Assembly: GCA_963839815.1 (NCBI GenBank)
Contig: CAWIWF010000005.1
Location: forward strand, 30,045 to 94,044
DNA from: an uncultured Thermoleophilia bacterium
GTDB taxonomy: Bacteria > Actinomycetota > Thermoleophilia > Gaiellales > Gaiellaceae
Direction: 5' to 3'
DNA length: 64,000 nt
Positions 22,727-26,151 of the stretch are shown in pieces (within the stretch, counting starts at the first letter, position 1; each line of letters opens with the position of its first letter). The position numbers and the translations under genes are program-made. The notes beneath the pieces are model-generated. The model was not told the origin of the DNA and searched no databases. It was given only the letters and a program-made list of their open reading frames with translations.

Positions 22727-24097
22727 CTAGAACCGGACGTCCTGGAGCACTTCTGCCGCGCGCCGGTAGAGCAGCGCAGCCGCCCGGTCCTCCCCCCTGC
22801 GACTCGCGAGGTCGCCTTGAGCGACCCACACAGACGCCCTGTGGCTCGGTGACTCCGACTGCTCTGCCACTGCGTCTGCGCGTGTGAACCACTCCTCTGC
22901 GTCGTCGAGTCGACCCTGTTCCATGAGCGCGCGTCCCAGCACCTGCTGCGAACCCGCGATCTCAGTGGCGTAGTCGGCACGGCCGCCGAGGAACTTGAGT
23001 GCCTCGCGCGCGAGCCGCTCGGCATCGGCGTGCTCGCCGCGATCGAGATGGACGCGCGCGAGCGACCCCGCCGCCGTCGCCGCGTCCGTGTCCGTGTCGT
23101 GCTCGAGCGCCACCGAGAACGCTGCCTTGAGGTTCTCGACCGCGGCGTCGGAGTGGCCCAGCATGTGGTTGAGCCCGCCCAGGTTGTTGAGCAGGCGGCC
23201 GACGTGGATCTCGTCGTCGAGCTGCTCGTACAGGGCGCGGGCACGCTCCGCGTACGTCCGCGCGCGAACCAGCTGGCCCAGCCGCTCGGCGACGAGCGAC
23301 GCCTGGAAGTACGTGTTCGCGACACTGCGGCGGTCGTCGATCCCCCGCGAGAGCTCGAGCGCACGCTCGACGTCCTCACGGGCGGCCTCCAGGTCGCGCT
23401 GGCGCCGGTAGCAGCGCGAGCGCCAGCCCAGGATCTCGGAGCGAAGGTGGTCGGCGGGCAGCTCCGAGCGCTCGGCGAGCGCGAGCGCCTCGCTCAGCAG
23501 CGCGAGCGCCGTCGAGACGCTCTGCAGCTTGTACCGGCAGACGCCCAGCCGGAAGAGCACGTCCGCACGATCCAGGTCGGAGAACCCCGGCCCCTCGACG
23601 ATCGCGCGAGCCCTGCTCAGCAGGTCGAGGGCGCCGCGGACGTCACCCGCCAGATTGCGGGCCCACGCCTCGCCCGCTAGAGCGCGCGCCTCGAGCTCGA
23701 CCGAGCCGGTGATCCGCACCAGCCGGCCGACCGTCTCGTACTCCTCGACGGCCTCCTCGCTGCGATGCGCGCGCGTCAGCGCCTCCGCGCGGGCGAGCGT
23801 CGCCTCCACACGCCCGCGGTCGTCGGACGAGACGCCGCTCGCGAGATACCCGGGATCGACGTTCAGACGGGAGGCGAGCCACTCGATCGTCTCCGCCGTC
23901 GGGCGAGTCTTCCCGCGCTCGATCTGGCTGACGTACTCCTTCGAGAAGCGCTGACCGGCGACCTCGCTCTGGGTCAGCCCGGCCGCGACCCGCAACTGCC
24001 GGAGGCGATCGCCGAGGCGATGGCCGGGACGAGAGGAGCCTGTCTGGAGTGCGTGCGGCATGGGGAGCGTCGTAGCGAAGTGTGGCCGACACTTCAC
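22727..24097 (-). CDS. XRE-family HTH + TPR-repeat transcriptional regulator
   Basis: N-terminal HTH LRQLRVAAGLTQSEVAGQRFSKEYVSQIERGKTRPTAETIEWLASRLNV, followed by ~350 aa of repeated helical TPR-like pairs. The start is GTG 24097 or ATG 24061. Confidence 0.85.
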   Translation of the reverse strand: MKCRPHFATTLPMPHALQTGSSRPGHRLGDRLRQLRVAAGLTQSEVAGQRFSKEYVSQIERGKTRPTAETIEWLASRLNVDPGYLASGVSSDDRGRVEATLARAEALTRAHRSEEAVEEYETVGRLVRITGSVELEARALAGEAWARNLAGDVRGALDLLSRARAIVEGPGFSDLDRADVLFRLGVCRYKLQSVSTALALLSEALALAERSELPADHLRSEILGWRSRCYRRQRDLEAAREDVERALELSRGIDDRRSVANTYFQASLVAERLGQLVRARTYAERARALYEQLDDEIHVGRLLNNLGGLNHMLGHSDAAVENLKAAFSVALEHDTDTDAATAAGSLARVHLDRGEHADAERLAREALKFLGGRADYATEIAGSQQVLGRALMEQGRLDDAEEWFTRADAVAEQSESPSHRASVWVAQGDLASRRGEDRAAALLYRRAAEVLQDVRF

Positions 24098-24197
24098 CAG
24101 GAAGCAACCCGTCCGAAAAGGACACTCCCCAAAGGGGCAGGTTCAAGGGGCCTAATGAGTGAAGTAACCGCCAGGTTCGATCGCTTGATCGAGCTAC

Positions 24198-24226
24198 TTG
24201 ACTCTTTCGGACATGCCCGTTACAGT
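24198..24226 (+). promoter_or_regulatory. near-consensus sigma70/SigA-type promoter directed into the tandem-repeat array
   Basis: TTGACT (24198-24203), a 17-nt spacer, then TACAGT (24221-24226), located in the only AT-rich stretch of this intergenic region. Confidence 0.45.
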
Positions 24227-24337
24227 CAGGTCACCTCGCCACCCCGATCAACCGCCAGGTCAGGAGCGAGCGTTGTGTTTGCGACGGAGGGCCGAGGGCG
24301 TGGCTGGGCCGCAGAGCCAAGCCCTCGGCCCTCCGCC

Positions 24338-25170
24338 GTGCCCTGGCCGGCGGCGGCTCCCGGCCGGCGGAGCCCGGCTCCGCCGCCGCCTCGCGCCGCT
24401 GCGGGCACGTCGCTCTCCGGGCCCGTACTCGGACGTACTGTGCCCTCCGGCGCCGCACCCGCAGCGACACGCCAGGAGCACGGCGGAGCGCTCGGTGTTG
24501 GGCAGGTGGTTGGCGTGCCCTGGGCGGGCGCCTCTGCCGCCGGCAGAGCCCGGCTCCGCCGCCGCCTCGCGCCGCTGCGGGCACGTCGCTCTCCGGGCCC
24601 GTACTGGACGTACTGTGCCCTCCGGCGCCGCACCCGCAGCGACACGCCAGGGCACGGCGGAGCGCTCGCTGGAGGAGCAGGTGGTCTGGCGTGCCCTGGC
24701 CGGCGGCGGCCCTGCCGCCGTCTCGCCGCTACGGGCACGATCCTCTCCGGGCCCGTACCCCGACGTACTGTGCCCTCCGGGCTCGCACCCTAGCGACGAG
24801 CCAGCAACGAGGTGCGCCCTGCGCCGCGGTGTTTGTCGCTGTCCCCTCCGGCCTCCTGCTCTCAGCGACACGCCAGGACACGGCGGAGCGCTCGCTGGAG
24901 CGGCAGGTGGTTGGCGTGCCCTCGGCGGCGGCTCCCGCCGGGCGGAGCCCGGCTCCGCCGCCGCCTCGCGCCGCTGCGGAGCCCGGCTCCGCCGCCGCCG
25001 CCTCGCGCCGCTGCGGGCACGTCGCTCTCCGGGTCCGTACTGGACGTACTGTGCCCTCCGGCGCCGCACCTGCAGCGACGCGCCAGGACACGGCGGAGCG
25101 CTCGGTTGTTGGAGCAGGTAGTTGGCGTGCCCTGGGCGGGCGCCCCTACGGGCACGATCCTCTTCAGTCC
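24338..25170. repeat. non-coding tandem repeat array, 4 full units plus 1 partial unit of 176-225 bp
   Basis: The unit anchor GTGCCCT recurs at 24338, 24515, 24691, 24916 and 25127, giving spacings of 177, 176, 225 and 211. Units 1 and 2 are near-identical. Unit 3 carries a divergent insert and unit 4 carries an internal 34-35 nt duplication (GAGCCCGGCTCCGCCGCCGCCTCGCGCCGCTGCG). No reading frame is conserved between units. Confidence 0.9.
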
Positions 25171-25227
25171 CGAGGCAGTGGGGTTCGACCTCGCGCGGCC
25201 GCGCAAGCGGCGCCTAGACTCGAGCGG

Positions 25228-26151
25228 GTGAACGCATGGGCTGAGCGCCTTGGGCGGGTGCGCCGGCGCGAGCTGTCGCCGGCCGGTTTTCGCAAGCTCG
25301 CGATCGCCTCCGCGACCTCGCTCTACCTCATCGTCGTCACCGGCGCCGCCGTCCGGCTGACCGCCTCGGGGCTCGGGTGCGACAGCTGGCCGGGCTGCCA
25401 GTCAGGAAGCTTCTTCCCCGAGAACGACGTCCACGGCGCCGTCGAGTTCGGCAACCGGGCTGTCGCGATCGTCCCGATCTCCCTCTCCCTGGCGACCGCA
25501 GTCGGCGCCCGCTGGGTGTCCGGCCTGCCACGTTGGGCCGTGCTCGTCGCCGCGGGGGTCGTGACCGGCACGGTTGGCCAGGCGCCGCTCGGGCTGCTCA
25601 CGATCACCTCGGGCCTGCACCCGCTGCTCGTCATGACCCACTTCCTGCTCGCGCTCGTCGTGCTGGCGGGCGCGGTCGTGCTCGCGCTGGCCCCGTGGCG
25701 CGAGCCGCGCCGCGCCACGCCGCCGCTCGTCCGTCGCCTCGGCCTCGCCCTCGCCGGCGCCGGCCTCGCGCTCGTCGTCACCGGCGCGTTTGCGACCGCC
25801 GCCGGCCCCCATCCCGGCGACAGCGCCGAGATCCGCCGGTTCGGCTCGCTCGAGACCACGGTCTGGATCCACGTCCGCGCCACCGCCCTCTTCGGCATCG
25901 CGTTCCTCGTGCTCTTCGGCTATCTGCTCTCCCGCCGCGCCGACTACCCCCGCCTGTTCCGCGTCGCCGCCGGGCTGATGGCGATCCTCGTCGCGCAGAT
26001 GGTCGTCGGCGAGATCCAGTATCGAACCGAGCTGCCCTGGGGGCTCGTTCTCGTGCACGTCTCGCTCGCCGCCGCCATCTGGGCCGCGACGGTGGCTTTC
26101 GTCACGCTCCTGTGGCGTCCGCCAGAGAGAGTGGGCGAAGGCGCGACGTAA
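25228..26151 (+). CDS. ctaA: heme A synthase (COX15/CtaA family)
   Basis: The protein-like part starts at VNAWAERLGRVRRRELSPAGFRKLAIASATSLYLIVVTGAAVRLTASGLGCDSWPGC. It is a multi-TM protein with conserved His (MTHFLLA, VLVHVSLA). The upstream part of the ORF is the repeat array. Confidence 0.85.
   Translation: MNAWAERLGRVRRRELSPAGFRKLAIASATSLYLIVVTGAAVRLTASGLGCDSWPGCQSGSFFPENDVHGAVEFGNRAVAIVPISLSLATAVGARWVSGLPRWAVLVAAGVVTGTVGQAPLGLLTITSGLHPLLVMTHFLLALVVLAGAVVLALAPWREPRRATPPLVRRLGLALAGAGLALVVTGAFATAAGPHPGDSAEIRRFGSLETTVWIHVRATALFGIAFLVLFGYLLSRRADYPRLFRVAAGLMAILVAQMVVGEIQYRTELPWGLVLVHVSLAAAIWAATVAFVTLLWRPPERVGEGAT

Follow-up and report, generated by a model that had tools for sequence, protein, structure and literature searches.

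What is the GC-rich tandem array that separates a helix-turn-helix/tetratricopeptide-repeat (HTH-TPR) regulator gene from the heme A synthase gene ctaA in the genome of an uncultured Thermoleophilia bacterium? We addressed this question in a window of 64,000 nucleotides (contig CAWIWF010000005.1 of assembly GCA_963839815.1, positions 30,045 to 94,044), and coordinates given below without a locus handle are those of the window. The array most likely represents four complete and one 5'-truncated head-to-tail copies of a dispersed, structured repeat family of relay type, amplified locally outside the canonical context of the family and not relaying translation at this site. Elsewhere, canonical members of this family sit between co-oriented genes, where their ends overlap the upstream stop and the downstream start.

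The array occupies positions 24338-25175, and its units share 84-92% identity with one another. An initial annotation had placed GTGCCCT anchors at 24338, 24515, 24691, 24916, and 25127, had read from them unit lengths of 177, 176, 225, and 211 nt plus a truncated fifth unit, and had located the array between the divergent HTH-TPR regulator and ctaA. Motif search, multiple alignment, and gene positions bore this out. GTGCCCT additionally occurs once within each full unit, at 24440, 24615, 24770, and 25051. The units are listed below.

24338-24514, minus strand: unit 1, full copy of 177 nt (nhmmer match 24341-24482, E 7e-27)
24515-24690, minus strand: unit 2, full copy of 176 nt (nhmmer E 8e-23)
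24691-24915, minus strand: unit 3, rearranged copy of 225 nt (nhmmer E 2e-15)
24916-25126, minus strand: unit 4, full copy of 211 nt with a 37-nt duplication (nhmmer E 2e-21)
25127 to about 25172, minus strand: unit 5, truncated copy (blastn and alignment)

According to Tandem Repeats Finder (TRF), positions 24337-24720 form an array of period 176 (score 625, 90% matches), and 24942-25016 hold an internal duplication of 37 nt, which corresponds to the one already noticed in unit 4. By blastn, unit 1 was 91.6% identical to unit 2 across 179 nt (E 7e-67) and 92.8% identical to unit 4 across 153 nt, and unit 3 was 83-86% identical to the other units in two separate blocks. Unit 3 has lost the GGAGCC hairpin domain. 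Its insert, previously put at about 50 nt, is real and measures about 70 nt; it holds a partial duplicate of the 3' half of the core, with 24839-24911 being 85% identical to 24613-24685. Unit 5, read in the sense orientation, is truncated at its 5' end and retains only the 3' arms of the two helices P2 and P1 described below. It resembles unit 3 (25141-25172 is 88% identical to 24724-24755), and the variant ACGGGCACGATCCTCT is common to units 3 and 5, with a different variant common to units 1, 2, and 4. This split points to amplification in place. A degenerate partial unit had been suspected from about 24247, and that suspicion was not upheld: 24247-24337 showed no homology to the units by blastn or nhmmer and holds a separate hairpin. 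Neither blastn nor nhmmer found further unit copies elsewhere in the 64-kb window.

The array is non-coding, as had been proposed. It contains 77% GC, compared to 72% for the window, and its long open reading frames (ORFs) have a flat GC content by codon position (about 0.78/0.77/0.78), in contrast to 0.74/0.50/0.92 in the flanking genes. A Pfam search of these ORFs gave no match. Rfam 15, searched on both strands with the window region and five canonical loci, returned no relevant match at E<=1. A CRISPR array was ruled out, as the units are contiguous, 176-225 nt long, and without spacers.

The initial annotation had raised the possibility of a dispersed family, and one was recovered from actinobacterial metagenome-assembled genomes (MAGs) and soil metagenome contigs. 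A core 19-mer identified single copies of a homologous core of about 135 nt in four actinobacterial MAGs, and a degenerate core pattern matched 108 soil-metagenome contigs. In total, more than 110 contigs from actinobacterial MAGs and soil metagenomes carry the family, mostly as single dispersed copies. In register, the element is very regular at about 150-180 nt. A MAFFT alignment of 92 non-identical copies and four window units (A2) gave homology across the whole element, and the window units match the family consensus at 76-82% identity (nhmmer E 1e-15 to 1e-27). The carriers are uncultured, high-GC soil actinobacteria. No genuine family match was found in plasmid and viral collections, and literature searches by sequence string, taxon, and concept found no description of the family, which is apparently undescribed.

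Two divergent members, at L048 6255-6399 and L007 2750-2918, were missed by the core pattern and found by nhmmer, which indicates that the family is broader than the 108 recovered contigs. One of the pair keeps the apical helix through a double change from GUAC/GUAC to GUGU/ACAC, and in the other an extended Watson-Crick helix replaces the GGA/GGA internal loop. Contig VAWW01000013 carries three copies in two 8-kb stretches (L003 1277-1427, L003 3320-3469, and L005 6478-6590), the two L003 copies lying at the hisG-hisD and hisA/F-ppc junctions. This shows a high local density in some genomes, compared to the single locus in the 64-kb window.

The alignment supports a common fold. The sense strand is the reverse complement of the window plus strand, and RNAalifold on A2 predicted 43 pairs in four domains, with compensatory double changes in 30 of them. 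Paired cells made up 96.5% of the total, compared to 84.6% after partner shuffling, a level that none of 500 shuffles reached; cells changed on both sides numbered 347, compared to 75 in the shuffles. Sliding the 3' partners by 1-3 columns left only 36-45% paired. The outer helix P1 is formed by CGCGCGUUCCUGG and CCAGGGGCGCGCG. Helix P2 has about 16 bp with a conserved tandem U.G/G.U and is capped by a conserved apical module, GCC-GGA-GGGC-ACA-GUAC-loop-GUAC-GG-GCCC-GGA-RGGC. The 3' domain consists of two nested helices. G.U pairs outnumber A.C pairs by 460 to 23, a strand bias of about 20-fold, which assigns the fold to the sense strand of a single-stranded nucleic acid. Consistent with this, sense-strand folding of the canonical copy L027 reaches -127.9 kcal/mol (z -5.7), compared to -104.9 kcal/mol for its antisense strand.

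The window units share this fold. Unit 1 keeps 39 of the 43 family pairs (5 G.U, 0 A.C), units 2 and 4 keep 37 each, and the rearranged unit 3 keeps 25. Within units 1, 2, and 4, three to five of the kept pairs differ from the consensus on both sides, with 4-5 G.U and 0-2 A.C pairs. Predicted folding energies on the minus and plus strands were -112.1 and -94.9 kcal/mol for unit 1, -101.8 and -85.3 kcal/mol for unit 2, and -132.1 and -114.4 kcal/mol for unit 4; in every window unit, the minus strand was favored by 16-19 kcal/mol. The kept pairs together with the minus-strand bias mark the window units as genuine long-form members of the family. The complementary pairs named earlier within the units are real and correspond to P1 and P2; the accompanying idea of mutually exclusive stems gives way to a single nested multi-helix structure of which they are mostly parts. 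Similarly, the description of the array as lying upstream of heme A synthase holds by position, while the favored fold is on the minus strand; the sense strand of the units is directed toward the HTH-TPR gene and is antisense to ctaA.

Away from the window, the family has a well-defined genomic context. With flanking-gene strands called from GC periodicity, both neighbors lay on the sense strand in 55 copies, both on the antisense strand in 6, and on mixed strands in 4. The upstream stop falls at fixed offsets from the core and is NTGA in 41 of 48 copies (GTGA 24, ATGA 12, TTGA 4, CTGA 1) and TAG in the remaining 7. The downstream start, also at a fixed offset, is RTGA in all 48 (GTGA 43, ATGA 5). 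When eight different downstream proteins (ADK, sulfatase, GT2, transketolase, and others) are read from the element RTG, their Pfam domains start at residues 2-8, which indicates that this RTG is the real downstream start. The downstream genes are diverse, encoding ADK, SDR, GT2, sulfatase, HPRT, Wzy, DsbD, a transketolase subunit, and the products of hisD and ppc; the flanking ORFs formed 139 clusters in which no partner gene recurred. This diversity suggests a generic junction module and not a regulon-specific switch. A riboswitch-like or gene-specific cis-regulator was considered and set aside, since the downstream genes form no coherent set. One large apparent neighbor cluster was also rejected, as it consisted of downstream-gene ORFs that open inside the element and share element-derived sequence.

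The spacing between the two junctions obeys a frame rule. Counted from the first base of NTGA to the first base of RTGA, it was 2 mod 3 in 40 of 48 copies; with a looser selection independent of gene calls, the figure was 67 of 69. In the 2-mod-3 copies, an ORF from the NTG at the upstream stop runs open through the element and ends at the TGA overlapping the downstream start. This relay ORF has about 18-65 codons (52-60 in full-length copies), and the rule extends across about 12 lengths: 56, 65, 134, 155, 158, 161, 164, 170, 173, 176, 179, and 194 nt. For L067, L105, and L108, the core loop is 1 nt shorter and the upstream stop lies 1 nt further from the core, and the total stays at 179 nt. 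Seven of the eight exceptions (among the 48 copies) have TAG or CTGA upstream ends in place of a start/stop overlap, as at the secY-adk junction, and the eighth is a GTGA copy, L061, with a spacing of 169 nt (1 mod 3). Relay peptide variability by codon position was 0.355/0.334/0.330 and GC at third positions was not raised, which indicates that the peptide is not under selection. The relay ORF was accordingly rejected as a protein-coding gene for its lack of codon periodicity.

Several unusual copies were also observed. L107 2609-2668 is a 56-nt internal-deletion mini-element holding only a 5' extension and the two P1 arms, and L010 44-112 is a 65-nt 5'-truncated copy; both have a spacing of 2 mod 3. 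Each lies directly upstream of a full copy, and a GTGA junction is common to each pair. The copies at L031 1922-2124 and L075 2915-3116 are antisense to their flanking genes and lie between two NTGA motifs, at 161 and 155 nt with the frame open. Both of these copies are 2 mod 3, and the frame rule thus holds in both orientations.

Based on these results, we infer that the canonical element would serve as a relay keeping neighboring genes translationally coupled. Overlaps of stop and start at -4 are the commonest prokaryotic gene junction (PMC12548453). The element would insert at such an overlap and provide a new GTGA, so that both the stop and the start signals are rebuilt. A ribosome ending the upstream gene would then re-initiate, cross the element, terminate where the new TGA lies, and begin again at the downstream gene. 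P1 is predicted to pair UUCCUGG, via conserved U.G pairs, with AGGGG and the start region; such pairing over AGGGG and the start should block independent downstream initiation until the relay ORF is translated. The element may be tolerated, or used, since terminating ribosomes would be relayed to the downstream gene.

The window array departs from this arrangement. Its sense junction reads CCAGGGCAC followed by GCCAACC, with no TGA or GTG, compared to a canonical junction of GCGCGUGA followed by GACGUCC. Its unit lengths are 0, 2, 0, and 1 mod 3, so the frame rule is not kept, and it lies between divergent genes with no co-directional gene upstream. By comparison, tandem canonical copies elsewhere have a GTGA junction in common. 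The missing junction codons, the broken frame rule, and the divergent neighbors together point to local amplification and not to a relay. One inserted long-form element would have been amplified locally by tandem duplication, as in MIRU-VNTR loci (mycobacterial interspersed repetitive units scored as variable-number tandem repeats), and the array itself is probably a by-product. Exact-protein look-ups with CtaA (read from both starts) and PAC2 turned up no other assembly of the locus.

How the family moves was approached from its flanks. At the upstream N, the variation resembles that of natural start codons and shows no correlation with the downstream R, and the first bases of the flanking tetranucleotides differ in 13 of 41 copies with both ends of NTGA type. 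The lack of correlation suggests that GTGA is part of the element and NTGA is the target, with no true target duplication. A target-site duplication (TSD) was rejected on the same ground and because longer flanking repeats did not exceed a mismatched-partner null. Flanking direct repeats rose above this null only at L008/L055 (the same locus; 20 nt) and at L031/L036 (9 nt). These are AGAAAGGAAAGACCCGCCGC at L008 (about 1300-1500)/L055 and GGTCATGCC at L031/L036, and such long repeats hint at a non-standard insertion mechanism. No transposase was found among the neighbors within 2.5 kb of any copy. A single-strand DNA transposase of the IS200/IS605 or RAYT type, or an RNA-mediated route, would fit the strand-specific fold.

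Some observations weigh against our interpretation. We speak of insertion because the distribution is dispersed, and our searches found no mobilizing enzyme, autonomous partner, or pair of empty and filled sites. Both the relay and the sequestration of the Shine-Dalgarno (SD) sequence are read from sequence. The apical module looks nearly invariant in A2 partly because the search pattern selected for it, and it does vary in two copies recovered independently of that pattern. Five diverged contigs carry the element at their secY-adk junction (L001 1609-1744, L004 4226-4361, L054, L079, and L043), and these copies are 82-91% identical, compared to 56-70% at adk third codon positions. Conservation above that of adk third positions indicates that the copies are either constrained in place or homogenized by gene conversion; a selfish insert of a purely neutral kind would explain it less well than gene conversion or a function for the host. 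Within the window, the units may have a local RNA function on the minus strand, given that 37-39 of 43 pairs and the G.U bias are kept. Our view of the source genome spans 64 kb, and canonical copies elsewhere in it would lie outside that scope. As a separate observation on the secY-adk copies, four of the five are preceded by a TAG stop and depart from the frame rule, and L043, with a GTGA overlap, obeys it (158 nt).

The genes and signals around the array are listed below.

22727-24097, minus strand: HTH_31+TPR regulator gene, running in the same direction as the sense strand of the units
24198-24226, plus strand: sigma-70-like promoter match TTGACT-17-TACAGT (1 found, 0.1 expected)
24282-24338, strand unassigned: GC-rich hairpin adjoining unit 1 (24-nt arms, 92% complementary, 9-nt loop)
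25228-26151, plus strand: ctaA (COX15/CtaA, heme A synthase), GTG start overlapping TGA (GTGA)

The promoter-like site is the only such match in the intergenic region. It sits in a dip to 60% GC (24000-24300) and points into the array toward ctaA, so transcription from it would yield the antisense strand of the units. Downstream of it lie an AGGAG (24262-24266) and TTG and GTG codons at 24273 and 24275, which open a 283-codon ORF across the array with GC flat by codon position. Together, these elements may give a plus-strand transcript entering the array. Neither strand of the hairpin at 24282-24338 carries a U-tract. For a minus-strand array transcript, the hairpin could act as an I-shaped terminator or a processing site; in a plus-strand transcript, it could form a 5' hairpin.

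When the ctaA product is read from the GTG at 25228, its alignment with the N-termini of homologs begins at residue 1, which identifies this codon as the true start. In the public annotation, the protein (P0001, 297 aa) begins 10 codons downstream of 25228. Codon 2 is AAC, and the homologs have Glu there. Within 25216-25231, the TGA of the ctaA GTGA closes a 139-codon, compositionally non-coding ORF (24812-25231, plus strand) that crosses units 3-5. The window CtaA is 63-72% identical to Gaiellaceae and Thermoleophilia MAG proteins, as named at NCBI, and these best hits point to a Thermoleophilia-like uncultured actinobacterium as the host. Relatives that keep the ctaA-PAC2-helicase synteny have only 20-58 nt upstream of ctaA, with no array. 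The absence of the array in syntenic relatives indicates a lineage-specific gain.

Other explanations of the locus were weighed against local amplification of a relay-type element. An exapted cis-regulatory RNA leader, which we judge unlikely, would run leftward as a structured 5' leader of about 1 kb or an independent multi-module RNA ahead of the HTH-TPR gene, or rightward from 24198-24226 as a long, antisense-oriented ctaA leader. The retained family pairs and sense-strand G.U bias of the units are consistent with such a role, as are the sole promoter-like site directed into the array, the strong hairpin adjoining it, the ctaA start in a GTGA overlap with the ORF through units 3-5, and the apparent constraint on orthologous family copies elsewhere. 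Against this stand the short, array-free region upstream of ctaA in close relatives and the association of the family with no particular gene class; moreover, the rearranged unit 3 and truncated unit 5 look like decay. That the repeats encode a repetitive Arg/Pro/Gly/Ala-rich protein is barely credible. Long ORFs do exist on both strands (24198-25121 on the plus strand, 307 aa, and 24260-25069 on the minus strand, 269 aa), but they are expected by chance at 77% GC, have the flat composition and the lack of Pfam matches described above, and cross an array in which the reading frame changes between successive units because unit lengths are not all multiples of 3. An assembly artefact, in which the assembler expanded a single element, is a highly improbable source of the array. 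The contig is of MAG type and repeats are error-prone in short-read assemblies, but many substitutions are unique to single units, indels are unit-specific (the 37-nt duplication and the 70-nt insert), and variants separate units 3 and 5 from units 1, 2, and 4. Simple assembler stutter would give near-identical units, and the unit-specific substitutions and indels argue against it.

The family as a whole could alternatively derive from a single-strand DNA transposon of the IS200/IS605 PATE or REP/RAYT type, with an HUH Y1 transposase recognizing the folded top strand and inserting 3' of a TGA-containing tetranucleotide, the fold thus serving transposition. We give this a minor share of the probability. 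A strand-specific fold, with G.T pairs tolerated in single-stranded DNA, would be expected, and so would helices that covary in place of conserving sequence if a hairpin-recognizing enzyme reads them; the element also ends in GTGA and follows an NTGA target with no true or consistent longer TSD. Yet no copy has a transposase gene nearby, the sporadic flanking repeats (20 nt at L008, 9 nt at L031) misfit this mechanism, and orientation tracks transcription (55 compared to 6), though selection could cause that. Under any mobility mechanism, the frame rule requires selection at the level of translation. A more far-reaching and doubtful possibility is that the family is a portable "translational relay" RNA module, consisting of a sequestered SD, a start, and a frame-locked ORF, that spreads via operon junctions, perhaps by an RNA-mediated or hairpin-recognizing-enzyme route, and that the host keeps at orthologous sites, secY-adk among them. 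The apical GGA/GGA-GUAC module would then be the binding site of a mobilizing or reading protein, and the window array would be a source locus or a minus-strand multi-module RNA gene rather than debris.

Comparison with known repeats places the relay-type family nearest to MIRUs. Passages on MIRUs (Supply et al. 1997) in two later papers describe insertion at start codons, an internal ORF coupled at -4 spacing, flanking tetranucleotide direct repeats, GC-rich inverted repeats, and tandem arrays (PMC12548453, PMC3184786). Judged by these published descriptions, the present family is similarly actinobacterial and GC-rich with internal inverted repeats, lies between co-oriented operon genes with tetranucleotide repeats at its flanks, also occurs in tandem arrays, and has ORF ends that overlap the upstream stop and downstream start at -4 spacing. 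It differs in unit length (40-100 nt for MIRUs, 134-194 nt for the family, and 176-225 nt in the window), in its four-domain covarying fold and near-invariant apical module, which are not described for MIRUs there, and in its hosts, which are uncultured Thermoleophilia-like soil bacteria and not Mycobacterium. The window array further differs in lacking stop/start junctions and in lying between divergent genes. The initial annotation had held that the units fit no known class. This stands insofar as there is no Rfam match and the array is neither CRISPR nor a 20-40-nt REP; the exclusion of MIRU-type elements fails, since the family behaves like the MIRU descriptions, though larger.

Other systems share single features. 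The upstream repeats of Neisseria (REP2) and Borrelia are dispersed, supply a downstream ribosome-binding site and start codon, and contain internal stem-loops, but they carry a promoter, form the 5' untranslated regions of monocistronic genes, and have no relay ORF or upstream stop/start overlap (PMC3184786). REP/BIME-RAYT systems and IS200/IS605 PATEs are structured, strand-specific intergenic repeats in transcription units whose hairpin is conserved over sequence, and they would be compatible with insertion next to a specific short motif that leaves no true target duplication. REPs are, however, 20-40 nt long with a GTAG or CGTC head, compared to 150-180 nt and four helices here, and neither they nor PATEs have a translated relay ORF or a frame rule; no RAYT or TnpA was seen within 2.5 kb of the present copies. 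Miniature inverted-repeat transposable elements (MITEs; ERIC/IRU, Correia/NEMIS, RUP, BOX, and Rickettsia RPE) are similar in being 100-200 nt long, dispersed in intergenic regions, and able to fold through terminal complementarity as a long mRNA hairpin, and some of them (Rickettsia RPE) are tolerated through keeping a reading frame. MITEs have sequence-conserved terminal inverted repeats, a fixed-length TSD, and a related insertion sequence, whereas here the terminal helix P1 covaries, only NTGA and RTGA flank the element, and no insertion-sequence partner was seen. Coupling helices that sequester the SD (PMC12548453) offer a likeness for P1, in which an anti-SD-like UUCCUGG pairs with AGGGG and the start, and the start is expected to open only when the upstream ORF is translated. 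Those helices are locus-specific, whereas the present one belongs to a portable, repeated module.

Herein, we describe a family whose relay logic would be that of MIRUs, with a highly structured unit about three-fold larger, apparently unrelated to them and carried by another class of actinobacteria. For decades MIRUs have served as typing markers, and to our knowledge no mechanistic test has addressed why they occupy stop/start overlaps. Finding a relay design, with statistics of unusual clarity, in a larger element family suggests that "relay" repeats are a general route to colonize or tune translationally coupled operons. The conserved apical motif provides a concrete handle toward a partner protein, and the family offers a natural portable coupling module for synthetic biology. 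For annotation, genes downstream of these elements start at the element GTG, and the long GC-rich ORFs across the elements are not genes.

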